A stretch of DNA of 64,000 bases, taken from positions 153,383 to 217,382 of the forward strand of contig DJVI01000003.1 in NCBI GenBank assembly GCA_002441125.1, written 5' to 3'. Positions 2,960 to 19,952 of the stretch are shown piece after piece. Position numbers and translations under genes: made by a program. The notes beneath the pieces were generated by a model. It worked only from the letters and a program-made list of their open reading frames with translations. It did not search any database and was not told where the DNA came from. The stretch comes from a candidate division WOR-3 bacterium UBA6260. Lineage in GTDB: Bacteria > Hydrothermota > 32-111. Positions within the stretch are counted from its first letter, which is position 1. The number at the start of each line of letters is the position of its first letter.

Positions 2960-3396
2960 AAAATAAAAATGATAAAATGTGTTATAAGGTTTGCCAGAAT
3001 TCCTGCCATTATATCATCAAGAAGTATTCCAGTTGCACCTTCAATTTTTTCAAATCTATCGAGAAAAAAAATTTTTGAAATATCGAGGTATCTGAAGATC
3101 AGAATTGAAATAAATATAACTAAGAAATTTTTTGGTAAAAACATTATTGAAATTGTAGCTCCAACAAGTTCATCTATAACTATTCTTTTATCATCTCCAA
3201 AAAATTTTTTCGAGTTGGATATCGAAATATATGAAAGAAAAAGAATCAAAGAGAAAAAATCAAATAGAAGAGTGAAACTACCTTTGGTAAAAAAGAACCA
3301 TAAAAAAAGAAGAAGAAAAGAAACTATTGTTCCGCCACCTTTAATTTTTCCTATAAAAAAAACAGTATTGATAACAGAATAAAAGAATTCGATCAT
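2956..3396 (-). CDS. pgpA: Phosphatidylglycerophosphatase A
   Basis: GGGT, IVIDELVG, FRYLDISK, GILLDDIMAG motifs; membrane protein upstream of cinA. Confidence 0.85.
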   Translation of the reverse strand: MIEFFYSVINTVFFIGKIKGGGTIVSFLLLFLWFFFTKGSFTLLFDFFSLILFLSYISISNSKKFFGDDKRIVIDELVGATISIMFLPKNFLVIFISILIFRYLDISKIFFLDRFEKIEGATGILLDDIMAGILANLITHFIIFIL

Positions 3397-4142
3397 CTGT
3401 AAATCTCTGGAATCTTTTTAAGTTCTTTTATCTCTTCCTGTGAGAAAAGGGTAAGATAGTTTAAAATTATTATAATCCTTTTTTCGTTTTTAAAAATTCC
3501 AACACCTTCTATATATTCCAATTTATTTTCTGGAAGAAAAGGTGGAATACTTTTTATATCTGGTTTTTCAAGCTTAACTATTCCAATGAGTTTATCAACA
3601 TAAAAACCTATCCTAAGTTCGTCGAGTTTCATTATAACTATAGAGCCGTTTTCACTCCTCCTATTAACTTTCAACCCAAACTTTTCTCTAAGATCAAAAA
3701 GAGGAAGAAAACCTTCTTTGTCGTTTAAAACTCCAAAAAAACTTTTGCTTTTCATTCCAATATCCAAAGGATCCTTATATTTTATTATCTGCCTTACAAG
3801 GTCAGAATCAATTCCATACTCCTCTTCGTTCAATTTAAAAGAAACATACTCTTTCTCTTCTTCAGAATCATCTTCCCTTTTTAAAGAATTTTCATCTTTT
3901 GAAAAATACTCACTTTCAACTTTTTGCTCAGGATTTTCTCTCCCTTCCGAAAAATCATCTTTTAAAGGTTTTGAATTTTTTTCATCAACTTTCAGATCTT
4001 TTATCTCTTCTTTTTCAATTAACTTTTCATCTTCACTTTTTGTCACTTCTTTTCTTTCTTCAACTTTTTCTTTTTCCTTATCATCTTTACTTTTTGTTTT
4101 ACCAACATTGAAAAGAGATGAAAGATCAATTTTCTTTTTCAT
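3393..4142 (-). CDS. cheW: CheW-like coupling protein with a long acidic/lysine-rich N-terminal extension
   Basis: C-terminal ~150 aa: YVSFKLNEEEYGID..VRQII, GVLN..G.FLPLFDLREKFGL, IGFYVDKLIGI, YIEGVG; the first ~95 aa are E/K low complexity. Confidence 0.85.
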   Translation of the reverse strand: MKKKIDLSSLFNVGKTKSKDDKEKEKVEERKEVTKSEDEKLIEKEEIKDLKVDEKNSKPLKDDFSEGRENPEQKVESEYFSKDENSLKREDDSEEEKEYVSFKLNEEEYGIDSDLVRQIIKYKDPLDIGMKSKSFFGVLNDKEGFLPLFDLREKFGLKVNRRSENGSIVIMKLDELRIGFYVDKLIGIVKLEKPDIKSIPPFLPENKLEYIEGVGIFKNEKRIIIILNYLTLFSQEEIKELKKIPEIYR

Positions 4143-4971
4143 ACTTTTCCCCCAGAATCTCTTTTAATTTCATTTCAGATTTTTGAGCCCACTTACTGAA
4201 TCTGTTTTTTTTAATAAGGTCTTTCAAAGTATTGATACCTTTTTTTTCCATGCCAGATTTTATATAAACTAATCCCAAATAATAATAAGCTTCAAGTAAA
4301 TTTGGACCTATCTTTATAGCTTCCTTCAAAAAATTAACCGAATCATCAAACATTTCCCTTTCCATGTATATAAGACCGAGATAAAAGTTCGCATACATTA
4401 AAGCAACTTTGTCATTTGAATTTTTTAGAACAAATGTTAGATGTTCTATCGCTTCTCCATAGATACCTTTCTTGAAACAAACAAAACCAAGGTTATTTTT
4501 TGCTATAGAGTTTTCAGGATCTATCTGTAAAACTTTTTGAAAGACTATCATAGCATCATCATACCTTTCCTTGTTTATATAAGCCCATCCCAAAAGATCC
4601 AAAGTCTTGACATCGTTTGGAGCAAGAGAGCTCGCTTTTTCCAAAACCTGAATGGCATCATCGTACTGTTCTTCAACTAAAAAATTCCATCCCTTGTCTA
4701 TATAAGTTGTCAGATCAACTTTCGATATTCTCATATTCTGAACAAAGTTTTCAAAAGAACTTTTATCTGTTTTTTTACTTTTTACCTTTTTGGCTAATTC
4801 TTTTATCTTTAAATTTGACTGAACAAGGAACTCGTTAAGATCTATTATCTCTTTATAAAGGTTTAAAATCTGATTTTTTATAGTTTTCTCATCAAATTTA
4901 TTCGAATCTATCTGGGCTGAAATAATATCTATTTCTTTCTCAAGTTCTTTTTTGAATTCTTTAAATTTCAT
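4126..4971 (-). CDS. Tetratricopeptide-repeat protein with N-terminal coiled coil
   Basis: About 5-6 TPR units (GWAYINKERYDDAMIVFQKVLQIDPEN, NNLGFVCFKKGIYGEAIEHL, AYYYLGLVY). Confidence 0.8.
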   Translation of the reverse strand: MKFKEFKKELEKEIDIISAQIDSNKFDEKTIKNQILNLYKEIIDLNEFLVQSNLKIKELAKKVKSKKTDKSSFENFVQNMRISKVDLTTYIDKGWNFLVEEQYDDAIQVLEKASSLAPNDVKTLDLLGWAYINKERYDDAMIVFQKVLQIDPENSIAKNNLGFVCFKKGIYGEAIEHLTFVLKNSNDKVALMYANFYLGLIYMEREMFDDSVNFLKEAIKIGPNLLEAYYYLGLVYIKSGMEKKGINTLKDLIKKNRFSKWAQKSEMKLKEILGEKYEKEN

Positions 4972-5992
4972 TTACCAGTTCCTCTATCTTTTCTGCTATA
5001 TTTTTTCTATCAAGCACAAAATCAACAGCCCCCGTTTCTTCTGCAGCTTTAGGCATTCCGTATATCAAAGCACTCTCCTTCGATTCAGCAATATTTTTTC
5101 CATTCATCTTCTTTATTATATTAACACCCTCACTTCCATCTTTACCCATCCCCGTAAGAACAACACCTATGATTCTGTTCCTAAAATGTTTTACAGCAGA
5201 TATCATCATTATATCTGCGGAAGGTCTTACAGAATGGTAAGGTGGATCATCCGTATGTATTATGTATCCATTCTCATCAAAAACCATATGTTTTCCACCC
5301 TGAGCAATAACACAATCTCCATTCAAAAGTTTACAGTTATCATAAGACTCAAAAACATTCAACTGTGAAAGGGAATCTAACCTTTCTGCAAAAGATCTCG
5401 TAAAACCTGCAGGCATATGTTGAACTATTGCTATAGCTGCATCTATATTGCCCTTAATTTTTGGAATGATATCCATCAAAGTTTTTGGTCCACCTGTTGA
5501 TGATGCTATAGCAACAAGTTTCGTTGCTTCGATTCTTTCCGATTTAAAAACCTTTTTACTTTTTTCAATCTCAACAATCTCACTACCAACATCTTTCAGG
5601 TTTGCCTTCAACCCTGCTTTCAGTTTTGTCAGGATCTCATTTTTTTTATCCTTGTAATCCAAAGATGAAGGTTTTTCAACAACATCTATTGCACCAAGTT
5701 CAAGTGCTTTTAATGCAATTTTTGAGCCTGTTTTTGTATATGAACTAACAATCAAAACAGGTATATTTTTTATCTTTAAAATATGCTGCAATGCTATAAG
5801 ACCATTTACCTTTGGCATCTCTATATCTAAAGTCACTATATCTGGATCAACTTCTTTTATTTTGTCTATTGCTTCAAGTCCATCACTCGCTTCATCAACA
5901 ACGGTAAACTCCTCATCGGAATTTATAATATCTTTCAAAATCCTTCTAATGAGAGCTGAATCATCAACCACAAGTACTTTAAATTTTTTCAA
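4961..5992 (-). CDS. cheB: Chemotaxis response regulator protein-glutamate methylesterase
   Basis: Receiver VLVVDDS/VTLDIEMP plus esterase triad motifs ASSTGGP, VQHMP, RPSAD, GVVLTGMGKDG. Confidence 0.96.
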   Translation of the reverse strand: MKKFKVLVVDDSALIRRILKDIINSDEEFTVVDEASDGLEAIDKIKEVDPDIVTLDIEMPKVNGLIALQHILKIKNIPVLIVSSYTKTGSKIALKALELGAIDVVEKPSSLDYKDKKNEILTKLKAGLKANLKDVGSEIVEIEKSKKVFKSERIEATKLVAIASSTGGPKTLMDIIPKIKGNIDAAIAIVQHMPAGFTRSFAERLDSLSQLNVFESYDNCKLLNGDCVIAQGGKHMVFDENGYIIHTDDPPYHSVRPSADIMMISAVKHFRNRIIGVVLTGMGKDGSEGVNIIKKMNGKNIAESKESALIYGMPKAAEETGAVDFVLDRKNIAEKIEELVNEI

Positions 5993-6468
5993 ATGTAAAT
6001 CTCTCCATTTTTTATTGAGATAACTCTTAAAATTCCAGTTTTAACATTAAACTCTACAGATCTGCTGTAATCACTTCCAACATCTTCAGCAACAACAGGT
6101 ATCCTGAGTTCCTTAAGCATCCTTCTTGCAATTTCAACATTTCTGTAACCTATAGAATCCTCAACACTCTTTATGAATGTGGAAAACATGTTAGCTCCTC
6201 CAACAAGTTTCGATTCCATTCTGTACTTTTTTGCGCCAAGTTGTTCCATCTCCAAAATAAGGTTAGCAAGACCTGTATCACAGTATTTGTAAGGATTAAA
6301 AACAACATTAGAGTAAGTTCTTGAAGGTAACATGTAGTGTATCATACCACCTATTTTTTTTTCCCTATCGTAAAGAGTCAAAGCGACACAGGACCCAAGT
6401 CCTATTGTCTTTAAAATATCCTCCTCAAAACCTATATTTGCATCAGCAATCTTAATGTTGATTATCAA
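5989..6468 (-). CDS. cheD: Chemoreceptor glutamine deamidase
   Basis: TIGLGSCVALTLYD, GGMIHYMLP, KLVGGANMF, IGYRN, AEDVG. Confidence 0.93.
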   Translation of the reverse strand: MIINIKIADANIGFEEDILKTIGLGSCVALTLYDREKKIGGMIHYMLPSRTYSNVVFNPYKYCDTGLANLILEMEQLGAKKYRMESKLVGGANMFSTFIKSVEDSIGYRNVEIARRMLKELRIPVVAEDVGSDYSRSVEFNVKTGILRVISIKNGEIYI

Positions 6469-7261
6469 TTTTTTTAAAAACCCTCTCTTTAATGTTTATA
6501 GACTTATAAAGTGTTTTTGTGTTACCAGTCAAGATCTCTACCTTGCCAAGTACAAGGATCCCTTCAGGAAGTAAAAGATCATAGAAGACATAAAACATTT
6601 TTTCCTGAAATTCTTTTGAAAAATAGATCAGAACATTCCTACATATTATAAAATCAAATTTGCCAAGAGTAAAGAGTATATTTTCTTCCTTTATATCTAA
6701 AATTTTAAAATATACATTCTCTTTCAATGACTCATCCAAATAGAAGTAATCTCCAATTTTTTTAAAATATTTTTTAACTTCCAAATCGTTAAGCTCTATA
6801 AGTGAATAGTCCCTGTACATACCTAAATGTGCCTTGTTGATAGCATCCTCATCAACATCTATTCCAACTATTTCATAGTTAAAATCTTTTTTAGCACTAA
6901 GTTTTTTCATAATTATGTTTAGAGAGTAAACCTCTTCACCTGTTGAACAACCTACACTTAAAATCCTTATCCTCTCTTTTTTTCTGATTAGTTCTGGGAA
7001 AATATATAGCTCAAGAAAATCGAAAGTTTCCCTGTTTCGAAAAAACCTCGTTACATTTATTGTTAATGTTTCTTTTAATATGTTTAATTCTTCTTTATCA
7101 CTTTTCAAAAATTGCAAATATTCCAAAAAAGTTTTCTTTCCTGTAGCTCTCATCCTTACCATAAGTCTTCTTTTAAAAGGTCTCTCCTTATATATACTTC
7201 CATCTATACCTATCTTTTGACTTATGAAATCCACAAGGATCTTATAATCTATCTCATCCAT
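6452..7261 (-). CDS. cheR: Protein-glutamate O-methyltransferase
   Basis: LTINVTRFFR, ILSVGCSTGEEVYSL, FDFIICRNVLIYF, GILVLGKVE. Confidence 0.95.
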   Translation of the reverse strand: MDEIDYKILVDFISQKIGIDGSIYKERPFKRRLMVRMRATGKKTFLEYLQFLKSDKEELNILKETLTINVTRFFRNRETFDFLELYIFPELIRKKERIRILSVGCSTGEEVYSLNIIMKKLSAKKDFNYEIVGIDVDEDAINKAHLGMYRDYSLIELNDLEVKKYFKKIGDYFYLDESLKENVYFKILDIKEENILFTLGKFDFIICRNVLIYFSKEFQEKMFYVFYDLLLPEGILVLGKVEILTGNTKTLYKSINIKERVFKKIDNQH

Positions 7262-8852
7262 TTTTTACTGTGTTTATAGTTTTTTTCAAAATCTCATTGT
7301 TAGGTTGTAATTTCAAAGCTTCCTCCCAAAATTTAAGAGCATCATCCTTTTTACCTTTTCTGTATTTTATGTTACCCAGTTTATAAAAGACATCAAAATC
7401 ACCTTTGTTAAGGTTTACTATCTGTTCAAGTATAATTTCCGCTGCCTCAAAATTTTTTTCGAGAAAATAAAAATCTACCAAAGATTTGTAAGGGAGAATC
7501 TCATCTCCACAGGTTTCTATACTTTTTTTCAAAAAATTTTCAGCTGTTTCATGTTTTCCAACTGAAAGATAAATCTGGCCGATATTGTAATAGTATTGCC
7601 AAACGGATGGATCATTTTTTGATAGTTCAAAAAATATTTCGGTCGCCTGATTTACCATTCCATATTCAAAGTATATAAGGGCCAAATAGTATTTCGCATA
7701 TTTTAGTCCCTTCTCTATATTCAAAGCCATTCTTAATTTTTCTTCAGCCTCAGTAAAAAGATTCTCCTTAAAAAGTAGAATTCCATAGTTTGCAAGAATC
7801 TTTGGATTTTCAGGCTCCAATTTTACAGCCCTTTCATAAAACTCTTCAGCTCTTTCAAACATACCTAACCTTTCATAGGTGAGAGCAATATTGTTAAAAA
7901 GGGATACATTTACTATGCCCAATTTTAAAAGTTCCTCAAAATATTTTAAAGATTCATTGTAATTGCCCATTCTAAAATATATCAAACCAAGATAAAAATA
8001 AGACTTTGCGTCACTCTTATCTATCTGAATTATGTGCTTAAACTCTCTTATCGCTTCATCATACATCTCCGTTAAAAGGAAGGCAATTCCAAGGTTGTAA
8101 TGTTCCATTATCTTATTATGAGAATCTATAGCTACTTCAGAACTCTTCTCTTCTCCAGAATATATATATCCGAGTTTTAAAAGTGTGTAAAGTTCTTTAC
8201 CTGTTTCATATTTGCCTATAGTTGAGTTTTCAAAAATATCTTTCAATGTTTTATAACCATCAACGAGAGAAAAAATATACCTTGTTGACTGATTTTCAAT
8301 ATCTTCTTCTTTTTTTATACCTGTTTTTACAAGAACCGTTTTTTCGGAAGGTAACTCTTTTTCAATAATTGACCATTCATCTATTTTTCTTGCCTCTTCA
8401 AGTAAAATATCGTCAGCCTCTATCTCAACAGTTATCGTCTCGGTAACTGGTTCTATGTTAGGTTCAAAATTAAAGAATCCACTCTTCCAGGTTAAAAGAG
8501 TAAAGATACTATCTGTTATCTGCTGTTTGATCCTTTTCTCAAGAACCTCTTTAGAAACAAAATTCATCTCAACAAGTATATCGCCCAATCTTTTTGATGA
8601 TTTTATCTCCTCTTGATACTCTAAAGCTTTTTCAAGTTGTTCTTTGGTTATATCGTTTGATTTCAAAAGAAGATTACCTATTCTTTCTTCCCTATTAACT
8701 ATAGAGCAATATATTATTTTTCCATCTTTGAAAAAAATATCTCCAAAGTTCTTTTTGTCTGATACACTTAAAACACCTGTTTTTCTTCCAAGTGAAAGTA
8801 ACTGTATTATATCAGGTAAAGATGCCTCTTGAAGATTTCCTCTTATTGCCAT
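7254..8852 (-). CDS. DUF4388 (PATAN-like) + tandem MshEN-like motif + TPR protein
   Basis: N-terminus IRGNLQEASLPDIIQLLSLGRKTGVL..IFFKDGKII and FTLLTWKSGFFNF (DUF4388); RIGNLL/RLGDIL motifs; ~8 TPRs. Start placed at ATG 8852 (GAGG 7 nt upstream). Confidence 0.8.
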   Translation of the reverse strand: MAIRGNLQEASLPDIIQLLSLGRKTGVLSVSDKKNFGDIFFKDGKIIYCSIVNREERIGNLLLKSNDITKEQLEKALEYQEEIKSSKRLGDILVEMNFVSKEVLEKRIKQQITDSIFTLLTWKSGFFNFEPNIEPVTETITVEIEADDILLEEARKIDEWSIIEKELPSEKTVLVKTGIKKEEDIENQSTRYIFSLVDGYKTLKDIFENSTIGKYETGKELYTLLKLGYIYSGEEKSSEVAIDSHNKIMEHYNLGIAFLLTEMYDEAIREFKHIIQIDKSDAKSYFYLGLIYFRMGNYNESLKYFEELLKLGIVNVSLFNNIALTYERLGMFERAEEFYERAVKLEPENPKILANYGILLFKENLFTEAEEKLRMALNIEKGLKYAKYYLALIYFEYGMVNQATEIFFELSKNDPSVWQYYYNIGQIYLSVGKHETAENFLKKSIETCGDEILPYKSLVDFYFLEKNFEAAEIILEQIVNLNKGDFDVFYKLGNIKYRKGKKDDALKFWEEALKLQPNNEILKKTINTVKNG

Positions 8853-8854
8853 TA

Positions 8855-10513
8855 TCAAACCTCAAACTCTACATACAATCTGTCAGTATCGTTGATCCAT
8901 TCCTTTATCAACTTTGAAGAATCATACTCTCCTTTTTTGACAAACTCTCTTTTTTTAACCGTTCCAGCGGGGAAGACCTTTTTTATGATTTCTTCATTTA
9001 TGTTGTTTTGATATTTTTGTAGTTCAACAAAATATTTTTCAATTTCCGATAACGGTATCGAAACATAATCGAGTAAAAAATTGAAAATAATATCGTTTAA
9101 TTTTATACCATACTTTTGCAGTAAATTTTTATAATAATTTTTTCTTATATAAAGTGTTGTTGGCTGTATATTGTAAGATGTGTACCTGTTAAAAAGATCG
9201 AGGATCTCTCTATCATCTATACTGAATTTTCTTTGGAGTGTTATAACTTTTACGATGTTAGATAAAAGTATATTCTTAACGATTGGAAGGTATTCTTTTT
9301 TTTCATAAATTCTATCAAGATCATCTATAAGAACGATGTCCGATTCATTTAAAAATTTCATCACATAAAAATTGTTAGATGCCTGCTCAATGTTATCTTT
9401 GTTGATGAATATTACCCTTTTATCTGTTAGATTATTAAAAAGTGCGTTCAGAATGTGTGTTTTCCCGGTTCCAGAACTTCCGGTTATTAGAACTATCTTA
9501 TCGACATTTACACCATTAATTATCTCGTTAATTTTGTTAACAACATGTCTGTTGGAAGAATCTATTATAAAATTATCCATATTCATCAGAATACTCGATT
9601 CTTTTTCAAAGAAGGAAAAATAGTTTATCTTTTCTTTTAAAACATTTATCTTCTCTCGTAAAATTTCAACTCTATCTGGATCAAAGAGCATTGTTTCAAT
9701 CTCTTTAGATTCAGCTTTAAACTTTTTTACATTCAAAAGACCATACTCTTTATGGAGTTCAACGAGTTTTTTTACATTTTCTGTAAACTTTTCAAATTCC
9801 CTTTTTATCTGCCCTATATCTTTTGAATTTATAACATTTTTAAGATTTTCAACATTGAAACCTTTCATCTCCCAAACATAAAGTTTTTCGATAAATTCTT
9901 CTCTATTTTCCTGTTCATCAAGCTTTTCTTCAACTCCAGCTTCTTTTTTCACCTGACTTATAAAATCTACAAAATTTATAAAATTGTTCTCATTTTTCTT
10001 CTCTTTTATCAGGTTATAGATTTTTGACTTTTGTAAAAAGAGTTTTATCCTATCAATATTTTTTATCTCATCTATTTTTTTTGATGAAGTTATTAAGAGA
10101 AAAGAGTTAGATTTTAAACTAAAGAAAAGATCCTCTATAATTTTTGAAAGTTCAGGATGTTTTTCTATATCATCAAAATTTTTTACAAGTAGTATATTAG
10201 CGTATGGGAAAATATTTTTGAATTTGACAAGAGTGTCTATCTTTTTCAACTCAAAAACCTGTTTTATATCTATTATAAAAAGATACAATTCTTTATATCT
10301 TTGAGAAAGGTCGAAAAAGAGTTTATCAACAAAATCGTTGGCTGAGTTATCGTTTGAATATATTATAACAGACTTGCTTGTAAGGTAACCTGTAGAAAGA
10401 GTGTAGGAATATTCAGATTTTAAGAATGGATCATTGGGTAAGTTTTCCTTTACCGTCTTTAAATTAAAACATGTAAAATTTTCTTGAAACTCTTTTACTT
10501 CATTTTGGTTCAT
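8855..10513 (-). CDS. DnaA/Hda-like AAA+ ATPase with two ATPase-like modules and no DNA-binding domain IV
   Basis: C-terminal module FIIDSSN..LITGSSGTGKTHILNAL..DIVLIDDLD; N-terminal degenerate module ANILLVKNFDD..FLLITSSK. Confidence 0.7.
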   Translation of the reverse strand: MNQNEVKEFQENFTCFNLKTVKENLPNDPFLKSEYSYTLSTGYLTSKSVIIYSNDNSANDFVDKLFFDLSQRYKELYLFIIDIKQVFELKKIDTLVKFKNIFPYANILLVKNFDDIEKHPELSKIIEDLFFSLKSNSFLLITSSKKIDEIKNIDRIKLFLQKSKIYNLIKEKKNENNFINFVDFISQVKKEAGVEEKLDEQENREEFIEKLYVWEMKGFNVENLKNVINSKDIGQIKREFEKFTENVKKLVELHKEYGLLNVKKFKAESKEIETMLFDPDRVEILREKINVLKEKINYFSFFEKESSILMNMDNFIIDSSNRHVVNKINEIINGVNVDKIVLITGSSGTGKTHILNALFNNLTDKRVIFINKDNIEQASNNFYVMKFLNESDIVLIDDLDRIYEKKEYLPIVKNILLSNIVKVITLQRKFSIDDREILDLFNRYTSYNIQPTTLYIRKNYYKNLLQKYGIKLNDIIFNFLLDYVSIPLSEIEKYFVELQKYQNNINEEIIKKVFPAGTVKKREFVKKGEYDSSKLIKEWINDTDRLYVEFEV

Positions 10514-11115
10514 CTTTTATTTTTTTCAAATCTACTTGTAAGGTTCTTTATAACTGAAAACATAGTTTCTTTTAAAGTCTCAAGGACACCTATACCTTTT
10601 GTTGCAACAGATTCAAAACTCTTCCATTCATTTTTGAGCTGCAATGTTGTTTTTATAGTTTCAATATCCAATGCTGTTGGAATGTCCCTTTTGTTGTACT
10701 GTATTATGAGTGGAATAGTTTCGATAGAGAGATTGTTCTCTTTCAGGTTTACAATTAGATTTTCAAAGGACTCTATGTTATCCTCCATCCTATCAGCCTG
10801 TGAGTCTATTACAAAGACAATTCCGTCCGCTCCCTGTAAAACGAGCTTTCTTGTTGAATCATAATACACCTGACCTGGAACTGTGTAGAGCTGGAACTTT
10901 GCATTAAAGTTACCTATTTTTCCAACATCGAATGGAAGAAAATCAAAAAATAGGGTCCTATCCATTTCGGTTGCGAGTGAAGTCATTTCTCCCCTCTTAT
11001 CAGGTGGTATTCTACTGAATATATATTGAAGGTTTGTTGTTTTTCCAGATCTGCCTGGTCCATAGTATACAATTTTACAGATTATCTCTTTTTTTGCATA
11101 GTTTACAAGTGACAT
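10510..11115 (-). CDS. mglA: MglA-family small Ras-like GTPase
   Basis: KIVYYGPGRSGKTTNL, DRTLFFDF, LYTVPGQVYY, DGIVFVIDSQ, QYNKRD, ESVA; start placed at ATG 11115 after GAGG. Confidence 0.93.
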   Translation of the reverse strand: MSLVNYAKKEIICKIVYYGPGRSGKTTNLQYIFSRIPPDKRGEMTSLATEMDRTLFFDFLPFDVGKIGNFNAKFQLYTVPGQVYYDSTRKLVLQGADGIVFVIDSQADRMEDNIESFENLIVNLKENNLSIETIPLIIQYNKRDIPTALDIETIKTTLQLKNEWKSFESVATKGIGVLETLKETMFSVIKNLTSRFEKNKR

Positions 11116-11122
11116 ATTTACC

Positions 11123-12226
11123 TCAATCACCTTTTATTGTGTTGAAAACATCCGAATCACTTGAATCGATTCCTCTTAATTTTAACTTGAACTCATCAAC
11201 ATTTGTTACAGCTTGTATCGCTTCATCGTAAGAAATTATTCCACTCTTATAGAGTCTCATAATAGATTGATCGAAGGTGTGCATCTGGTACATAGCACCC
11301 TCTTCTATAGCAGTTGGAATAAGAAGAGTTTTAATTGGGTCAAGTAGATACTCTTTTATTGTTGGAGTATTAATCATAACCTCCGTTGCTGGGACTCTTC
11401 CCTTTCCATCTATTCTTGGAAGCAATCTTAAAGATACAACACCAACAAGTGTTGTTGCTAAAAGAACCCTTATATGCTGTTGCTGATGTGGAGGATAGAA
11501 TGAGAGTATTCTGTTAATAGTTTCCGATGCGTTCAATGTATGTAATGTTGAAAGAACGAGATGTCCAGTATCAGCAGCTTTTATGGCAACATCCATAGTA
11601 TCAACATCCCTTATCTCTCCCATGAGTATAATATCTGGGTCCTGCCTCAAAACATGTTTTAAGGCGCTTTCATAGGAATTTGTATCGTTATTAACTTCTC
11701 TCTGTGAAATAACTGATTTTTTATCCCTAAAAAGATACTCTATAGGATCCTCTATCGTAATTATATTTTTTGAATAGTTTTCATTTATGTATTCGATCAT
11801 CGCAGCAAGAGTTGTAGATTTTCCTGAACCTGTTGTTCCTGTAGTTAATATCATTCCTCTCGGTCTTTCAGCCATTTCTTTTAAAACTGGTGGAAGATTC
11901 AATTCATCAATAGATTTCGCTGATATAGGTATTGTTCTCATAGCAATAGCAACACTTCCCCTCTGAAGGTAAACATTGACTCTGAACCTTGATAAACCTG
12001 CAACTCCTATTGCGAAATCTATCTCCTTTTTTGCTGCAAACTCTTCCTGTTGATTTTTGGTCATTATTTTCAAAGCAATATTTTTCAACTCATCTGGACT
12101 CATCGGTTCTTCTTTCAAAATCTGTAATTTTCCATCTATCCTTAAAATTGGAGGAGTCCCAGCTTTCAAATGAAGATCTGATGCTCCATCCTTAACCATC
12201 TTTTCAAGTAAGGTTTTCAATTCCAT
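11123..12226 (-). CDS. PilT/PilU-family type IV pilus retraction ATPase (PilU-like: lacks AIRNLIRE)
   Basis: ASDLHL, GTTGSGKSTTLAAM, TIEDPIEY, LRQDPDIILMGEIRD, TGHLVLSTLHT, MHTFDQS. Confidence 0.92.
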   Translation of the reverse strand: MELKTLLEKMVKDGASDLHLKAGTPPILRIDGKLQILKEEPMSPDELKNIALKIMTKNQQEEFAAKKEIDFAIGVAGLSRFRVNVYLQRGSVAIAMRTIPISAKSIDELNLPPVLKEMAERPRGMILTTGTTGSGKSTTLAAMIEYINENYSKNIITIEDPIEYLFRDKKSVISQREVNNDTNSYESALKHVLRQDPDIILMGEIRDVDTMDVAIKAADTGHLVLSTLHTLNASETINRILSFYPPHQQQHIRVLLATTLVGVVSLRLLPRIDGKGRVPATEVMINTPTIKEYLLDPIKTLLIPTAIEEGAMYQMHTFDQSIMRLYKSGIISYDEAIQAVTNVDEFKLKLRGIDSSDSDVFNTIKGD

Positions 12227-12806: not shown

Positions 12807-14243
12807 TCACTTTTTTCTTTGATTTATGAATTTTATCCATTCTTGAAAGTTCCCATCAAAGGAAACATTCTCATTTTTCTTCTCATCTTTTCTATTTTCT
12901 TCTTTTTTTTCTTCAACTTTTTCTTCCTTCGGCTCTTCGGTTGTAACTTTTGAACTATCCTCTTTTTTCAAATTGAAATCAACTTCTTTCTTTTCCTCTA
13001 TTTCAGGTTCTTTTTCATCATTTGCTTTCTTTTCTGTTTTTTCCTCTATATTTTCATCAATCTTTTTTTCTTCATCTTTGGAAATGGAATCAACTGCACC
13101 AAACTTTTTCTCAAAATCTTTTTTCTCCTCATCTGTGACACTTTCAACAGACAAAGTTTTATTCCACCTTTCTATAAGTTCAGCCCTGTTCTCTTTCTTC
13201 TCTTCATTGTTATCTTTAAACATCTCCTCATCTACTTCCTCTTTTATCATAAGCTCCCTAAGTGTTCTAATTTTTTCAGCATACTTTTCTTCCTCTGGAT
13301 TTTGGCGGAGAAGTACCTGATATATCTCCAGAGCTTTTTCATATTTTTTCTGCTCTATATAAATATTAGCTATCTCCTCTGAAAAATATTGATATTTTTT
13401 AGCACCACTCAATTCATAAGGTATTATTTTTTTCTCTTCAACTTTCCCCTCTTTTTTTAAAAAAGGATCAACATCTTTCTTTATAAACTTTTCTTCATCA
13501 ATAATATTAAGTTCTTTACTTTCAACAACATTCTCTTTTTTTTCATCTTCATCTTTTTTCAAATCGTAGGATTTTTTTGATCCTTCAAATTCTTTTTCTT
13601 TGTTTTTTTCTATCTCTTTTTCTTGAACTGCTTTTTCCTTTTTCTTTTCCTTCATTTCTTCTTTCTTTTCTTCATCATCAAAACTTATAACATTTGAAGA
13701 ATGTTGAATTATAAAATCATCAATTATATTTTTCTCTTCCTTTTCATCCTTTTGAACAACCTCTTTTTTCTCTTCCTCTTTCTTTAAAATTTTCTCCCTT
13801 TCCTCTTGTATCCTTTTCTCTTCATCGATTTTTCCATTTATTATTTTAATTTCCCTCTTCGCATCCTCATTCAACGGGTCAAGGAAAATTATCGTATCAT
13901 ACAATTTTAAAGCTTCCTGAAGATTACCTTCCCTTTTCCTTATTTCGGCAAGTTCATTGAGTGCAACAATGTTCTGTGGGTCAAGTTTTATAACCTTTTC
14001 AAAATTTTTTGAAGAGTTGGTAAAATCTTTTTTTTCTTTAAGAGCTTTTCCCATAAGTACAAGTGCTGAAACATTATCAGAATTATACCTTAACCCTTCC
14101 TTTAAAACTGAAATGGCATCATCAACCATACCTATTTTAATATAAATGTTTGCAAGTTTTATAAAAGATTTCGACTTTGGATTTTTAGCAATATCTTCAA
14201 GTAACTCTTTTATCTCTTTCTCATACATACTATAAGAATTCAA
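12807..14243 (-). CDS. TPR protein with long acidic low-complexity regions
   Basis: N-terminal TPRs (KLANIYIKIGMVDDAISVLKEGL, VIKLDPQN), internal TPR EEIANIYIEQKKYEKALEIY, C-terminal FQEWIKFI. Start moved to TTG 14243 (GGAGG upstream) because the longer ORF-track start overlaps a consensus promoter. Confidence 0.75.
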   Translation of the reverse strand: MNSYSMYEKEIKELLEDIAKNPKSKSFIKLANIYIKIGMVDDAISVLKEGLRYNSDNVSALVLMGKALKEKKDFTNSSKNFEKVIKLDPQNIVALNELAEIRKREGNLQEALKLYDTIIFLDPLNEDAKREIKIINGKIDEEKRIQEEREKILKKEEEKKEVVQKDEKEEKNIIDDFIIQHSSNVISFDDEEKKEEMKEKKKEKAVQEKEIEKNKEKEFEGSKKSYDLKKDEDEKKENVVESKELNIIDEEKFIKKDVDPFLKKEGKVEEKKIIPYELSGAKKYQYFSEEIANIYIEQKKYEKALEIYQVLLRQNPEEEKYAEKIRTLRELMIKEEVDEEMFKDNNEEKKENRAELIERWNKTLSVESVTDEEKKDFEKKFGAVDSISKDEEKKIDENIEEKTEKKANDEKEPEIEEKKEVDFNLKKEDSSKVTTEEPKEEKVEEKKEENRKDEKKNENVSFDGNFQEWIKFINQRKK

Positions 14244-14274
14244 AATTCCTCCAATAATTACTATTAAAATATAA

Positions 14275-14303
14275 ATTATAATTAAAATAAACAAAAGTGT
14301 CAA
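14275..14303 (-). promoter_or_regulatory. Sigma70-type promoter for the TPR-efp-pilT/U-mglA...recA operon
   Basis: Minus strand TTGACA (14303-14298)-N17-TATAAT (14280-14275), perfect consensus. Confidence 0.75.
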
Positions 14304-14316
14304 CAATTCTTTTGTA

Positions 14317-14344
14317 TTGATTCTTGTTAAAAATATTATATAAT
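14317..14344 (+). promoter_or_regulatory. Sigma70-type promoter, probably leaderless, for the stand-alone receiver gene
   Basis: TTGATT-N16-TATAAT, ATG 6 nt downstream at 14351, no Shine-Dalgarno. Confidence 0.5.
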
Positions 14345-14350
14345 TTTTTT

Positions 14351-14716
14351 ATGAAAAAGATTATTGTTGTTGAAGATGATCCAGATATCGTTGAACTGGT
14401 TACAGATATCCTTTCAGACAGTTACCAGATAACTTATGAAACTGATGTTGAAAAATTGTTTAAAAGGACAGATATGGAAACATTCGATCTTATAATAACT
14501 GATTTCCTTTTGGAAAAATACTCTGCAAAAGATATAACAGAAAAATACAAAAATAAAAAATTTCTTATAATTTCTGCTTTATCTGTTAATTCTTCAAAAA
14601 TCTCATCTTTAGTTGATAACAAGAAAATTTTTTATCTCCAAAAGCCTTTCGTTGTAGATGATTTGATGGATAAAGTGGATAATATTCTTAAGTTAACTTT
14701 TCGAAACTTTTCATAA
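14351..14716 (+). CDS. Single-domain response regulator receiver (CheY-like)
   Basis: IIVVEDD, FDLIITD (phosphoacceptor Asp), IISA, YLQKPF; start placed at ATG 14351. Confidence 0.8.
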   Translation: MKKIIVVEDDPDIVELVTDILSDSYQITYETDVEKLFKRTDMETFDLIITDFLLEKYSAKDITEKYKNKKFLIISALSVNSSKISSLVDNKKIFYLQKPFVVDDLMDKVDNILKLTFRNFS

Positions 14717-15330: not shown

Positions 15331-15362
15331 AAAAGAGGGCTTTTTTAAAGCCCTCTTTTTTT
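15331..15362. terminator. Intrinsic terminator after pilQ (bidirectional-looking)
   Basis: AAAAGAGGGCTTT (15331-15343) / AAAGCCCTCTTTT (15347-15359) inverted repeat with flanking A/T tracts. Confidence 0.75.
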
Positions 15363-15363
15363 G

Positions 15364-16965
15364 TTATTTTACTTCTCTTATTATATGCGGTGTTATGAAT
15401 ATCAAAACTTCTTTATTGTTCTTTGAAGAAATATCCCTCTTGAATAGATGTCCTAAAATAGGAATCGCTCTTAGAATCGGTATTCCACTTTCAGATCTCT
15501 GATCCTCCTGCAATATGAAACCTCCCATAACAACAGTTTCACCATCTGAAACCATCTGAACAGTTTTAGCCTGTGTTTTATTTATTATTGGTTGACCAGC
15601 AGCATCTGCAGTAACTGTTGAAAGCTCAGCTTCTATTTCGAGAGTTATATCCTCAGATGAGTTAACATGTGGCACAACATTTAAAATAGTACCAACTGTG
15701 TATTTTGTATAGTTAACTGTTCCATCAGTGTTAATTGTAGTTAAGAAGAATTCTTTTCCACCAAGTATGTTCGCTTGGGTGTTGTTAGTTGTTGTTATTC
15801 TTGGATTTGATACTGTTTTAGATTTACCAACAACCTCAAGAGCATCAAGTTTTGCACTCAACTGACCAAAATCCCTTGTTGTTCCTATACTAACAGTTCC
15901 AGAAGTTGCACTTGAAGGACCCACACCTTGTATACCTCCACCAAGAGTAACCTGATTTATTCCAACATTGTTTAAAGTCCATGATATTCCAAGTTCTTTT
16001 GAATTGTTTAACTGGATCTCAACAACTTTTACAACAATTTCAACCTGAAGATTTTTCTTATCAAGGTCCTCTATTATACCCTGTATCCTGCTTTGAACAT
16101 CCTGAATATCTTTGACTATTATAGAGTTTGTTCTCTCATCTATTGTTATTATTCCCCTTTTTGAAAGAACAGGTCTTAAAGCGTTCTGTAAAACTTTAGG
16201 GTTTGCAAATTCCAACTTATACACTGTTGTTATAAGTGGCAAAGCATCCTGCATTGCTGTTTGTTCAGAAGAAAATTCTTTGTATGTCCCAACTCTTATC
16301 ATATTTGGGTATTCTTGATATGTTAAACCAGCGAGTCTTGTTACCATATCGAATATATCCTTCCATGGGACATCTTTCACATGCACAGTCACCCTTCCGG
16401 TCACGGAACTTGAAATAACAAGGTTGACTCCAACATAGTCAGCTATTCCTCTCAAAAGTGTTACAACATCAGCATTCTCAACATCGAGAGAGATTAAAAA
16501 GTCAGAATTTTTATTTGTAGCACCTTCCATTTGTTCTTTTGCTTCAGGTTTTGAAAGGGATGCCTTCCATAGTGGAATATCTGTCTTTGCTGTTTTATCG
16601 AGTGTTATCACTATGTCATTTCCTTTGTACTCTTTAGAATATGAATACTTATCATCAGTCTCAATCATAATCCTTAAAAAGTTTGTCTCATAATCTTTTA
16701 TGATCTCAAAAGAAACTATTCCAGACCCATTGTTAACTTTATAGTATCCACCATTCAAACCATTATCTATACCGATAAGGTCTATCACTATCATGTTCGG
16801 TGAAGTTATCGAAAAATCAGTAAAATTGGCAACCTTGTCAAGTGAAAATCTTACCTGTGTTTTACCGGCAGATGTGTTAACCTCTATATCGTTAAGAAGC
16901 CCTAAGGAGAAAGCAGAAAGAGAAAGAAAAAGAACAAAGGACAAAATAAAGATTCTCTTAACCAT
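15364..16965 (-). CDS. pilQ: Type IV pilus secretin with AMIN domain
   Basis: Signal peptide, AMIN-like P..IVIDL, ISLDVENADV, IDERTNSIIVKD, SNPRITT.NN..A.I..G, DGETVVMGG, GIPILRAIPILGHLFK, EVLIFITPHII. Confidence 0.93.
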   Translation of the reverse strand: MVKRIFILSFVLFLSLSAFSLGLLNDIEVNTSAGKTQVRFSLDKVANFTDFSITSPNMIVIDLIGIDNGLNGGYYKVNNGSGIVSFEIIKDYETNFLRIMIETDDKYSYSKEYKGNDIVITLDKTAKTDIPLWKASLSKPEAKEQMEGATNKNSDFLISLDVENADVVTLLRGIADYVGVNLVISSSVTGRVTVHVKDVPWKDIFDMVTRLAGLTYQEYPNMIRVGTYKEFSSEQTAMQDALPLITTVYKLEFANPKVLQNALRPVLSKRGIITIDERTNSIIVKDIQDVQSRIQGIIEDLDKKNLQVEIVVKVVEIQLNNSKELGISWTLNNVGINQVTLGGGIQGVGPSSATSGTVSIGTTRDFGQLSAKLDALEVVGKSKTVSNPRITTTNNTQANILGGKEFFLTTINTDGTVNYTKYTVGTILNVVPHVNSSEDITLEIEAELSTVTADAAGQPIINKTQAKTVQMVSDGETVVMGGFILQEDQRSESGIPILRAIPILGHLFKRDISSKNNKEVLIFITPHIIREVK

Positions 16966-16973
16966 TTATTACC

Positions 16974-17549
16974 TCACTTTTTTTTCTTTGTATCAATATT
17001 CTTAACCAATTTGATAACTTTATTTCTAACAACACCATACTCATCAAGTTTAAAAATAACTGAATCCTGTTCTATTTTTAGAAGTATTCCATTTTTTATT
17101 TTCTGTCCTTCGTAAAATATGAAACCTAACCCTGATGCATCTTTCAACAATGCGAGTTTCCCATTTTTGCCTTTTATCATTCCAAAATACATCGCACTCT
17201 CTATATCAATTTGAACTTTCCCTTCCCTCTGTTGTTCAAGTATTGAAACGAAAGGATCATTTTTTGTTTTTGTTTTAAAAGTGTATGTTTCGATTGTAAA
17301 GGGAAGAGTTGTTGTAGTATCGTACGGTAAAGAATCTGAAACAGTTTCCTGATTCTGTGTTTCAACATTCGTATCCGAATTTGAAACCAAACTGTCGGTA
17401 GTTTTTGTATTACCCTTTGGTGTTAACGCTTTGGAAGATTTTTCTATTGCTGAATTTACAGGATTTCCCCTTGAGCATGATATAAAAGAGAATATCAAAA
17501 AAAGCGTTAACGATAAAAGAAGGATTGATCTATTTTTTCTTTTTAACAT
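16974..17549 (-). CDS. pilP: PilP-like pilus assembly lipoprotein
   Basis: Lipobox-like FISC, DPFVSIL, ALLKDASGLGFI; position between pilO and pilQ. Confidence 0.7.
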   Translation of the reverse strand: MLKRKNRSILLLSLTLFLIFSFISCSRGNPVNSAIEKSSKALTPKGNTKTTDSLVSNSDTNVETQNQETVSDSLPYDTTTTLPFTIETYTFKTKTKNDPFVSILEQQREGKVQIDIESAMYFGMIKGKNGKLALLKDASGLGFIFYEGQKIKNGILLKIEQDSVIFKLDEYGVVRNKVIKLVKNIDTKKKK

Positions 17550-18123
17550 TTTTACCTTCCTCTGTTTTTGTTTGGGCTCCTGGACCTTTATAGTAGGTTG
17601 ACATAGTTAAAACAACCTGAATAGTGTTAAGGTTTTCATCTGATGTTTTCAAAGGTTTTATAGCTATACTGTTAACTTTGGTAATCCTCTTTTGATTCCC
17701 CATATCTGTTAAAAACTGTCCAAGAGATGAGTAAGTTGCATTCAATGTTATTTCATGGTTTAGATTAGCATAATCGTTTGTGACTGATACACTCAAAGGT
17801 TTAATATTCATTACTTTAACATTGTTTTTATTAGCGTAAACTGTCAGAGTATCAAGCGCATCTTCAAGGAGTTGGGAGTCTGGTAGCATTTTATTTGCAA
17901 TTTTTAACTGGTTTTCAAGTATTTTCAATCTTTTTGAATATTCAGCATAACTTGCTGCAACCTTTCTCGCTTCGTTAACCTGAGTGTTAAGTTTATCGTT
18001 CTCAGCTTTCAGTTGAGCAATAGTTTTTGAATTTTTTGAATAGTCGAATTTCCAGTATAGAAAGAGGATCGCTATCAGAACAACCACCGTTACGATTGTT
18101 TTTATTAAATTATTTTTTTCCAT
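17530..18123 (-). CDS. pilO: Type IV pilus assembly protein PilO
   Basis: N-terminal TM helix, coiled coil, LPD, ATYSSLGQFL..RIT. Confidence 0.85.
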   Translation of the reverse strand: MEKNNLIKTIVTVVVLIAILFLYWKFDYSKNSKTIAQLKAENDKLNTQVNEARKVAASYAEYSKRLKILENQLKIANKMLPDSQLLEDALDTLTVYANKNNVKVMNIKPLSVSVTNDYANLNHEITLNATYSSLGQFLTDMGNQKRITKVNSIAIKPLKTSDENLNTIQVVLTMSTYYKGPGAQTKTEEGKNVKKKK

Positions 18124-18132
18124 CTGCCACCC

Positions 18133-18711
18133 CTATTTTTTGTAGGTACAATTTATTTCAAAAGAGATTATATCGTAGCCACCCTCTGGTTTGTTGACTA
18201 TATCTTTCAATACAAAATTATCAAAATACTCATTCTCTTTTTTCATGTTTGTCAAAAGTTCTGTTATCATAAGGTTTGAAAAGGTTTTTCCTTTCAACAC
18301 CAACCTTTTCTCTTTTACTGTCAAATCTTCAAGCCAAACATACTCTGGAAGAAGTTGATTTAACTTATCAAGAAGTTGAGCGTAAGCAAACTTTCCGGCT
18401 ATAAGATTTTTTATAGTTTCGATTTTTGCATTTATCTCATTCTCTTTTTCTTTCATCTTCTCAACTTTTGCAACCTCTTCCTGCAATTTTTTGAGTTCAT
18501 TCTGTTTTTCACTTATCTTCTTTTTCAACTGGTTCATCTGTCCAACCTGTGAAAAATGTATTATAAATATCAAAATGAAAAGAAGGACAGCGACACCTAT
18601 CGAAACGAAAAATCCGAGATTGGTTGGAATCTTTATACCTATTTTAGGTATTCCTCCCTCACTCTTTTTTCGCTTTCTCTCTTCTTCTGGAAGTAAATTT
18701 ATCTCTATCAT
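18133..18711 (-). CDS. pilN: Type IV pilus assembly protein PilN
   Basis: MIEINLLP, TM helix, coiled coil, LPEYVWLEDL. Confidence 0.9.
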   Translation of the reverse strand: MIEINLLPEEERKRKKSEGGIPKIGIKIPTNLGFFVSIGVAVLLFILIFIIHFSQVGQMNQLKKKISEKQNELKKLQEEVAKVEKMKEKENEINAKIETIKNLIAGKFAYAQLLDKLNQLLPEYVWLEDLTVKEKRLVLKGKTFSNLMITELLTNMKKENEYFDNFVLKDIVNKPEGGYDIISFEINCTYKK

Positions 18712-18724
18712 CTTTACCTCTCTT

Positions 18725-19753
18725 TTATGGATTTCTTAAACTCAAACCTATAGAAGGAACAAGTAATGGCGAAACTTTTTCCAATTCTTCGAGAGTTAAA
18801 AGCCCTTCTTTAATTTTTATTTTTTTGAAAGGATCAAGTTTCTCAACATTTATTTCAAATCTATTCTTAAAATAATCCAAAATTGCAGGTCCATTCGCTC
18901 CACCACCTGATAGGTATATCTTTTCTATCTTTTCTCTATTTGTAAAAGGAATAGCCCTTTCAATATGTGTGCATATCTCATCATAGAATGAGTCAAGCCC
19001 TTCCTTTATCTTTTCCTCAGGTATTTCGTTTAAAGTTTCACCTTTGAAAACTTTGTCCAACTGTTCTTTTGTTATTCCCGGTATCTTCTGAAGCAAAGAT
19101 TTTATAGCAGTTGTGACATCTCTTGTAAAAAGGTTGTTTGTTCCCTCGATAAAGCTCAATATTGTATTCTCATAACCGATATGGACTAATGTTACCATTT
19201 CGTTTGGAACTGGTTCATAATTCGCTTCAAAACAATTTTGGATAGTGAAAGCTGGAACATCGATAACAGTTGGATTTAACTCCATATCTTTGATAAGAGT
19301 TATGAATGGATGGAGAATCTCCTTTTTAGCTGCCACAAGCAAAACATCTATCTTACCCTGTTCATCTGAAGGTCCTAAAACTTTGTAATCGAGTTGAACA
19401 TCCTCTATACTGTAAGGAATGTTTGTTTCAGCTTCCTGTTTCACCATTATTGAGAGTTCATTATCCTTCATCTGATCCATCTTCAATTTCTTTACTATAA
19501 CTCCCCTTCCAATAAGAGCACAAGAAACATCTTTCTCTTTTACATCCCTTGAAACTAAAAGATTCTTAACTGTATCAACTAGCTGCAATCTGTCCATAAT
19601 CTCACCATCAGCGATGGCGATATCTGAAAGTTCAGAAAACCCAAAATCTTTCAAAACAGGTTCTCCTGTTGAAAGATCTACGATTGAGTATTTTATGAAA
19701 GAACTTCCGATGTCAAGACCGAGATAAGTTTTTTTTCTTTTTTTAAAAGCCAT
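18725..19753 (-). CDS. pilM: Type IV pilus assembly protein PilM
   Basis: LGLDIGSSFIK, DVLLVAAKKE, IDVPAF, VHIG, IYLSGGGA, IGLSLR; start placed at ATG 19753 after AAGGTGG. Confidence 0.93.
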   Translation of the reverse strand: MAFKKRKKTYLGLDIGSSFIKYSIVDLSTGEPVLKDFGFSELSDIAIADGEIMDRLQLVDTVKNLLVSRDVKEKDVSCALIGRGVIVKKLKMDQMKDNELSIMVKQEAETNIPYSIEDVQLDYKVLGPSDEQGKIDVLLVAAKKEILHPFITLIKDMELNPTVIDVPAFTIQNCFEANYEPVPNEMVTLVHIGYENTILSFIEGTNNLFTRDVTTAIKSLLQKIPGITKEQLDKVFKGETLNEIPEEKIKEGLDSFYDEICTHIERAIPFTNREKIEKIYLSGGGANGPAILDYFKNRFEINVEKLDPFKKIKIKEGLLTLEELEKVSPLLVPSIGLSLRNP

Positions 19754-19766
19754 AATACCACCTTTT

Positions 19767-19952
19767 TTATCCTTCAATAAATTTTTTTATTTCCCTGCCT
19801 TCGATATACCATTTCTTTCCAATCTTCTTTCCCTTTAAAAGTTTCATCTTCAAATGCTTTCTAACAGTCTGCTCTGTAACATTCAATATCTCAGCAACCT
19901 CTGAAACAGTATAAAGTTTATTTTCATCTATCTGTGATGGAATGACTGCCAT
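19767..19952 (-). CDS. Small MerR-like/excisionase-type helix-turn-helix DNA-binding protein (HTH_17)
   Basis: LYTVSEVAEILNVTEQTVRKHLKMKLLKGKKIGKKWYI; GAGG SD upstream. Confidence 0.85.
   Translation of the reverse strand: MAVIPSQIDENKLYTVSEVAEILNVTEQTVRKHLKMKLLKGKKIGKKWYIEGREIKKFIEG

Follow-up and report, generated by a model that had tools for sequence, protein, structure and literature searches.

A conserved chemosensory and MglA gene run in a WOR-3 bacterium, probably one half of a bipartite system controlling type IV pili

The 64-kb stretch of DNA analyzed here (the window), from contig DJVI01000003.1 of the candidate division WOR-3 bacterium UBA6260, carries on its minus strand a run of nine genes: those for the type IV pilus retraction motor PilT and the small GTPase MglA, an AAA+ protein with a DnaA-like fold, a protein combining PATAN, MshEN-like and tetratricopeptide repeat (TPR) elements (hereafter PATAN-TPR), CheR, CheD, CheB, a second TPR protein and CheW. 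We propose that this cluster (half-1) is probably half of a bipartite chemosensory-polarity system, the most likely task of which is to set the place and timing of type IV pilus action. As we read it, half-1 would supply CheR, CheD and CheB, an extra CheW-type adaptor, MglA, PilT and two module-specific proteins, namely, the AAA+ protein and PATAN-TPR. The gene run is real and conserved and appears to be undescribed; it apparently represents chemosensory control of an MglA pilus switch, in which two conserved parts are new and the division into two operons is unusual. A preliminary description of this stretch had recognized the contiguous run from pilT to cheW, and Pfam, NCBIfam and PDB-sequence comparisons confirmed every gene that it named:

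12226..11123, minus strand: PilT/PilU-family retraction ATPase (T2SSE, E=1e-50; TIGR01420, 457.5 bits against a cut-off of 319.1)
11115..10510, minus strand: MglA small GTPase, 201 residues (E=2e-66 to the M. xanthus and T. thermophilus MglA structures, 6h17/3t12)
10513..8855, minus strand: tandem AAA+ protein with a DnaA/Hda fold, 552 residues (weak Pfam/NCBIfam matches; AlphaFold2 model; Foldseek)
8858..7254, minus strand: PATAN (DUF4388) domain with a MshEN-like insert and about eight TPR repeats (Pfam PF14332, 129.9 bits against a cut-off of 25)
7261..6452, minus strand: CheR methyltransferase (Pfam CheR, 154.8 bits; CheR_N, 43.7 bits)
6468..5989, minus strand: CheD deamidase (Cys and His kept relative to T. 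maritima CheD, 2F9Z, in GLGSCVA and MIHYMLP)
5992..4961, minus strand: CheB methylesterase with a receiver domain (NCBIfam NF001965, 359 bits against a cut-off of 293)
4971..4126, minus strand: TPR protein of 281 residues (TPR281) with a predicted N-terminal helical (coiled-coil-like) region followed by TPR repeats
4142..3393, minus strand: CheW-domain protein (Pfam CheW, 80.6 bits against a cut-off of 23.5; domain at residues 98-236)

Gene order in related loci and the second operon

We gathered about 45 related loci by genome and metagenome scans and exact-protein look-ups and assigned their genes by BLAST against the window proteins and by Pfam (locus numbers such as L010 are ours). The core order, comprising MglA and/or MglB, AAA+, PATAN-TPR, CheR, CheD and CheB, is found again in about 30 loci from TA06, WOR-3 and Stahlbacteria genomes. 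Of the 27 loci that extend far enough, 25 have the PATAN-TPR gene directly after the AAA+ gene, and cheR is directly next in 21 of the 23 loci with a visible next gene, usually followed in turn by cheD, cheB and the gene for TPR281. Directly upstream of the AAA+ gene there is always mglA, a roadblock gene of the MglB type, or both. The preliminary description had called for a comparison of the gene neighborhoods of the AAA+ and DUF4388 proteins, and across the TA06, WOR-3 and Stahlbacteria loci the order is indeed strongly conserved. The arrangements observed are as follows:

Variant A (the window's clade; L005-L009, with L028/29 being window-type): efp, pilT, mglA, AAA+, PATAN-TPR, cheR, cheD, cheB, TPR, cheW, pgpA, cinA
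Variant B: pilT, accC, thiE, mglA, AAA+, PATAN-TPR, cheR, cheD, cheB, TPR, AAA_22, cheW, mcp, cheW, (pgpA where present), cinA
Variant C: roadblock gene, AAA+, PATAN-TPR, cheR, cheD, cheB
Variant D: recJ-like, mglA, mglB, AAA+, PATAN-TPR, cheR, cheD, cheB, TPR, suhB
Variant E (Hydrothermales): mglB, AAA+, PATAN-TPR, cheR only

The flanks change wholly between the variants, being efp/pgpA, recJ-like/suhB or glutamate dehydrogenase/peptidase. Since the core order is kept while the flanks differ, we conclude that the linkage of the Che, MglA/MglB, AAA+ and PATAN genes has been selected and is no by-product of a compact genome.

CheR, CheB and CheD modify Glu and Gln residues of methyl-accepting chemotaxis proteins (MCPs), while CheW couples the kinase CheA to MCPs and CheA phosphorylates the receiver domain of CheB. 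A phmmer search of all six-frame open reading frames (ORFs) found no MCP and no second CheW in the 64-kb window, nor any roadblock/MglB protein, either beside mglA or elsewhere in it, and no CheA domain was detected among the 40 of its ORFs scanned with Pfam (the cluster, its flanks and the large ORFs). A complete MCP-CheW-CheA core is hence not found within the window; both CheA and an MCP are encoded in the metagenome-assembled genome (MAG) of a relative. From the window the preliminary description had concluded that the module lacks a receptor and a kinase, a view that the syntenic relatives contradict. In variant B, the flanks of which are those of the window, a 560-residue HAMP-MCP and a second cheW lie between cheW and pgpA/cinA. 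This HAMP-MCP carries canonical EE/QE methylation/deamidation motifs (SSTTEELTAS, TASVQEISAS, ASAMEEIGAS and GASTEEQMAA), with three strict motifs in the copy in the half-1 operon of GCA_021163525.1 and four in the L010 orthologue. A motif check of the window's own cluster proteins found an MCP-type methylation motif in none of them. The further suggestion that the Che enzymes have been repurposed onto a non-MCP substrate is likewise not supported: besides the lack of such motifs in the cluster proteins, CheB retains an intact receiver, and this implies a CheA.

The counterpart of half-1 emerged from a search of a representative library with a profile of the variant C and D MglBs. With full HMMER this profile returned AT-rich candidates, two of which led to operons of other organisms that we term half-2; a word-based search with the WOR-3 MglB profile gave tight orthologues only. 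Half-2 encodes, in order, a soluble MCP of about 1,050 residues, CheW, CheY, CheA, CheC, a TPR protein of about 880 residues, a PATAN protein, a TPR/roadblock protein, a roadblock-like protein, an MglB-like protein and TamB. This order is identical in three lineages (L045-47; L056/L062; L057/58), the CheAs of which are merely 39-50% identical, and in none of the half-2 operons recovered from these lineages is there a CheR, CheD or CheB. The soluble MCP (L062:5337-8501; also L045/L047/L057) bears a C-terminal SBP_bac_5 (peptide-binding-protein) domain. Both halves occur in one MAG, that of WOR-3 AUK059 (GCA_021163525.1), with half-1 of variant B on JAGGTX010000165.1 (L011; GC, 41.7%) and half-2 on JAGGTX010000242.1 (L056/L062; GC, 40.7%). 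In this MAG the two operons are complementary: half-1 encodes the adaptation enzymes, MglA and PilT, and half-2 encodes the receptor, kinase, response regulator, phosphatase and MglB-like proteins, with each half having its own PATAN and TPR proteins. Cognate cheA and mcp genes elsewhere in the genome were what the preliminary description had held would tell against it, and the complementary operon of this one relative provides them. We consider it very likely that the window's own genome, too, has CheA and MCP genes.

Several loci show further peculiarities. In Hydrothermales WOR-3 (L050-L054; e.g., L050:7275-13698), MglB, AAA+, PATAN-TPR and CheR stand together, ahead of a gene for a 606-residue protein that matches no family, with no CheD, CheB, CheW or MglA nearby, and the retention of a lone CheR beside polarity genes is odd. 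Two variant-D loci (L032:12344-14779 and L042:12511-14947) run from mglA, mglB, AAA+ and PATAN-TPR directly into a suhB-sized gene and lack CheR, CheD and CheB; 7 kb upstream there are genes of CheD-like and CheB-like size without a match to the window proteins. Genes for biotin carboxylase (accC) and thiamine-phosphate synthase (thiE) lie between pilT and mglA in L010:6835-8776, L014, L022 and L023. The single Gemmatimonadota locus (L016) has PATAN-TPR and AAA+ alone, with no Che genes. The 606-residue gene after cheR in variant E and a 525-residue gene after cheB in L017 were considered as MCP-like neighbors and rejected; one is without matches and the other codes for a polytopic membrane protein, and they are not MCP-like and probably unrelated.

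Motor, GTPase, Che enzymes and the two module-specific proteins

The pilT product of the window is 61-96% identical to those of the related loci with pilT; its TIGR01420 score places it in the joint PilT/PilU family. MglA, the true start of which is the Met at 11115, shares about 60% of its residues with M. xanthus MglA. Its P-loop (GPGRSGKT), intrinsic Arg (TEMDRTLFFDF) and catalytic Gln (TVPGQ) are all present. An MglB encoded next to mglA is common in the MglA family and is not obligatory. In the MglAs of variant D (L031-L042), the P-loop reads GTGLCGKT, and the TExDR[TS]L[FY]FD pattern that surrounds the intrinsic Arg in window-type MglA gave no match.

The preliminary description took CheR, CheB and CheD to be catalytically intact, an impression that is upheld by the key residues kept in comparisons with 5FTW/1AF7, 1A2O and 2F9Z, respectively. 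CheR retains the CSTGEE, DVD and CRNVLIYF motifs, with its S-adenosylmethionine-binding motifs intact. CheB has the Ser, His and Asp equivalents in SSTGG, QHMP and GMGKDG, and its receiver keeps DD, D (TLDIEMP), S and K. TPR281 has orthologues encoded after cheB in variant A, B and D loci, and the CheW protein has a 95-residue N-terminal extension rich in Lys, Glu and Asp.

The AAA+ protein scores far below the family cut-offs of the models that it matches, with 54.5 bits against 194.8 for Hda and 37.8 against 410 for DnaA. An AlphaFold2 model (mean pLDDT, 80.7) begins with an N-terminal AAA-like alpha/beta domain (residues 1-170) that has no P-loop; a disordered linker leads to a helical middle domain, and the C-terminal AAA+ domain bears both Walker motifs, A (GSSGTGKT) at 345-352 and B at 393-398. 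Foldseek matched the C-terminal half to domain III of T. maritima DnaA (2z4r; TM score, 0.70) and the whole chain to p97-type tandem AAA proteins. The N-terminal P-loop (GxxGxGK[ST], near residues 34-41) is retained in 6 of 14 distant homologues of 588-697 residues and gone in all homologues of 552-559 residues, including that of the window; its survival in some distant homologues marks the family as a tandem AAA+ family. Across 35 sequences, the best-conserved part is the helical middle domain (about residues 200-305), the invariant residues of which include K210, Y212, W214, E215, M216, K217, F219, E273, F277 and P279. Pfam, NCBIfam and the fold search detected neither domain I nor the DNA-binding domain IV of DnaA. 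Membership in the DnaA/Hda family was therefore rejected, given the scores below cut-off and a likeness to the domain III fold only: the C-terminal domain superposes on DnaA domain III/Hda, with Walker A and B present, whereas the window protein is a tandem AAA+ with its own family-specific helical middle domain. A sequence search of the PDB gave only P-loop noise and no informative match.

The PATAN domain of PATAN-TPR contains a helical insert with two tandem 24-residue motifs, at residues 59-82 and 90-113 (RIGNLLLKSNDITKEQLEKALEYQ and RLGDILVEMNFVSKEVLEKRIKQQ), both of which are conserved across 27 orthologues. Residues 59-113 match the NCBIfam model NF053729, "c-di-GMP motif, MshE-related" (49.2 bits against a cut-off of 38), and the insert also matches the N-terminal MshEN-like region of T. 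thermophilus PilF (6f8l). The two tandem motifs of the RLGxxLLxx-LxxxxLxxxLxxQ type are shared with the MshEN domains of MshE/PilB-type ATPases; here, however, the motif sits inside a PATAN domain and not at the start of a secretion ATPase. At position 10 of the MshEN motif, the window protein has Asn in place of the conserved Gly. We suggest that the insert probably binds cyclic di-GMP (c-di-GMP).

Proposed circuit, related systems and alternative explanations

Two described systems offer parallels. In M. xanthus, the MglA/MglB polarity module is a target of the Frz pathway, and it is via the TPR protein SgmX that MglA-GTP recruits PilB (PMC11580455, PMC4316618). In Synechocystis, PATAN domains bind PilB1 and PilC, and in cyanobacterial regulators these domains suffice to reverse pilus polarity (bioRxiv 10.1101/2021.06.11.447907). 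From the genes observed, their intact motifs and conserved order, and the second operon of a relative's MAG, we infer the following interactions. MCP arrays with CheA, both encoded by half-2, would control CheA activity, and CheA would phosphorylate CheY and the CheB receiver. The half-1 enzymes CheR, CheD and CheB would set the modification state of the receptors, as their intact residues and the canonical-site MCPs of relatives suggest. Phosphorylated CheY might act on the roadblock/MglB, PATAN and TPR proteins and hence on the MglA GTP cycle, comparable to the action of Frz on MglA/MglB in Myxococcus. MglA-GTP could engage the TPR part of PATAN-TPR, by analogy with SgmX, and the PATAN domain could contact the PilB/PilC motor as in cyanobacteria, with c-di-GMP as a second input that would probably enter via the MshEN-like insert. 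The AAA+ gene always lies between those for MglA/MglB and PATAN-TPR, and we speculate that its product probably serves the complex of MglA/MglB with the PATAN-TPR adaptor as an ATP-dependent switch or as an assembly factor. The pole-switching pilus controller integrating GTP, c-di-GMP and ATP that the preliminary description envisaged thus survives in part: the components fit inputs of GTP and ATP, and probably c-di-GMP, while its receptor-less and kinase-less basis falls away.

In Myxococcus, as here, a Che pathway with CheR/CheB adaptation is tied to MglA, MglB, TPR effectors and polar pili, in that case through Frz, MglA/MglB (with RomR/RomX and MglC) and SgmX. There, however, the genes lie apart from one another and the connection is a genetic one, whereas here Che and polarity genes are physically joined in two operons. 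Further differences are the presence in the window-type system of CheD and CheC, neither of which is part of Frz, the two extra conserved partners (the tandem DnaA-fold AAA+ protein and PATAN-MshEN-TPR) and the separation of MglB from MglA in the window's clade; neither RomR nor RomX was seen in the window-type system. The hallmarks of Frz (the ACF class) are a CheA-CheY fusion of the FrzE type, the cytoplasmic receptor FrzCD, a CheR-TPR fusion and the lack of CheD. The window encodes a CheD and a CheR without TPR fusion, its cluster is devoid of CheA, and in the half-2 operons of relatives CheA and CheY are separate genes. The window system may therefore work like Frz, yet it is no Frz orthologue. 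The cyanobacterial Tax/Pix systems, with PatA-type (PATAN-REC) regulators, resemble it in that PATAN is the output that links a Che-like pathway to PilB1/PilC. In contrast to these, PATAN is fused here to TPR rather than to a receiver and carries the MshEN-like c-di-GMP motif; in addition, the cyanobacterial systems are without CheR and CheB, and MglA plays no part in them. MglA genes have been noted to neighbor PATAN genes "occasionally" (PMC4316618), and beyond this our literature searches found nothing on the AAA+ family, the joining of Che enzymes to it or the two-operon split. Communication from Che to MglA has been worked out mainly in Myxococcus, where the connecting proteins were found one by one. 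Here the whole circuit seemingly lies in two compact complementary operons, which provide a parts list: the AAA+ protein and PATAN-TPR as candidate connecting proteins, together with three roadblock proteins and a soluble receptor.

A number of observations weigh against the bipartite system proposed above. The two GCA_021163525.1 contigs are joined solely by metagenomic binning, and for the window's own genome half-2 is deduced from relatives. The window's clade has lost the in-cluster HAMP-MCP, and the soluble MCP of the relative's half-2 has no strict methylation motif, its sites being of the loose QEE/EE kind (IVRQEELA and SEAEEGIS). Variants C, D and E have CheR, accompanied or not by CheD and CheB, next to AAA+ and PATAN-TPR, and CheW and MCP are missing from the vicinity (from within 10 kb in variants C and D); variant E keeps CheR as its lone Che enzyme, next to MglB, AAA+ and PATAN-TPR. 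Further, translational coupling extends from the operon to housekeeping genes, so that tight packing alone is little proof of a common function.

The loss of the in-cluster MCP, the loose sites of the soluble one and the composition of variants C, D and E would also suit a self-contained module, without receptor or kinase, in which CheR, CheD and CheB modify the AAA+ protein, PATAN-TPR or the coiled-coil TPR protein to switch pilus polarity. The absence of CheA and MCP from the 64-kb window points the same way, as do the overlap of cheR with the codons of PATAN-TPR, directly 3' of which it lies in nearly all loci, and a precedent from Salmonella, where one report gives the non-MCP protein PhoP as a substrate of CheR (PMC8546571). 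We nevertheless regard this explanation as improbable, given that an MCP with canonical EE/QE sites lies within the variant B operon itself, that one MAG has alongside half-1 an operon with CheA, CheY and MCP but without CheR, CheD and CheB, and that the cluster proteins are devoid of MCP-type motifs. The phosphotransfer from CheA implied by the CheB receiver also argues against it, and so does the presence of cheW, the product of which has, to our knowledge, no known role other than coupling CheA to MCPs. As an alternative to the bipartite system, the Che genes could belong to an ordinary chemosensory pathway that has nothing to do with MglA and PilT and owe their position to operon compaction in a small, gene-dense genome. 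Indeed, efp, pgpA, cinA, ligT and recA share the transcription unit, with codons overlapping or abutting, and co-transcription alone is therefore no evidence of common function. This explanation appears very improbable, as the block from MglA/MglB through AAA+ and PATAN-TPR to CheR/CheD/CheB stays intact while its flanks change completely, and half-2 independently unites Che with PATAN, TPR and roadblock genes in three lineages.

It is also conceivable that the circuit is a chemosensory-polarity one with an output other than twitching, such as pilus-mediated DNA uptake, adhesion or another polar process. The cinA, recA and recX genes downstream in the operon of the window's clade would fit such an output, as would the lack of pilT in the neighborhood of variants C, D and E. 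We think this unlikely, for pilT adjoins the cluster in variants A and B as well as in loci of the L013 type, pilMNOPQ lies directly upstream in the window, both MglA and PATAN domains have pilus motors as their known outputs, and the adjacency to cinA/recA is not kept outside variants A and B.

Returning to the bipartite system, we offer as a tentative extension that the AAA+ protein and PATAN-MshEN-TPR are obligatory, so far unrecognized core partners of an entire subfamily of MglA/MglB switches found in TA06, WOR-3, Stahlbacteria and allies, forming an ATP/c-di-GMP-gated switch wired to the two-operon chemosensory pathway, and that CheR, CheD and CheB may also modify a component of this complex where only CheR is kept or the in-cluster MCP has been lost. 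This extension is possible, if rather doubtful. Were it true, receptor-style adaptation would act directly on the polarity switch, and if the two proteins are genuine core partners of MglA, then ATP and c-di-GMP would be inputs to bacterial front-rear polarity. Their role as MglA partners is open to direct tests with purified proteins.

Transcription unit and flanking genes

The transcription unit exceeds the nine genes first reported and runs through TPR499, efp, the nine-gene cluster, pgpA, cinA, ligT and recA, with neighboring genes overlapping or at most 10 nucleotides apart; the GC content of the window is about 31%. The features around its upstream end are as follows:

14303..14275, minus strand: sigma-70-type promoter, TTGACA-17-TATAAT, the sole 12/12 match in 20 kb
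14306..12807, minus strand: TPR499, the opening gene of the operon (Pfam TPR matches; Lys/Glu-rich, strongly charged middle)
14372..14716, plus strand: stand-alone receiver (CheY-like), 114 residues (Pfam Response_reg match; DD/D/S/K residues in the translation)
19777..15364, minus strand: pilM-pilN-pilO-(pilP)-pilQ, type IV pilus assembly, directly upstream of the long operon

The promoter match likely marks the start of the long operon, and a hairpin terminator at 15331-15359 forms the boundary between this operon and the upstream pilQ. The region 14275-14344 holds back-to-back promoters, the perfect one on the minus strand and a 10/12 match on the plus strand for the receiver gene. This gene, 2 kb upstream of the cluster and divergent from it, is kept in the relatives L005-L009. 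The statement in the preliminary description that the cluster has no CheA, MCP or CheY thus stands for the first two, whereas a CheY-like receiver is encoded close by.

TPR499 has TPR repeats at both ends; the spacer between them, about 250 residues long, has an extremely high content of Lys, Glu and Asp. The first 26 residues of the predicted ORF are hydrophobic and overlap the promoter, so that they are probably untranslated; the real start is probably Met27, near 14228. The protein is confined to the window's clade, within which its identity is 54-76%, and in L028 a 549-residue gene without a Pfam match occupies its position.

Farther upstream, among housekeeping genes, 23153..21837 on the minus strand encodes a 438-residue protein with DUF6938 as its sole family match. 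Near-identical copies of the 8.8-kb stretch were found in metagenomes from sludge, wastewater, sediment, hot springs, groundwater and oil facilities, from which we conclude that the organism is widespread in anaerobic engineered and subsurface habitats.

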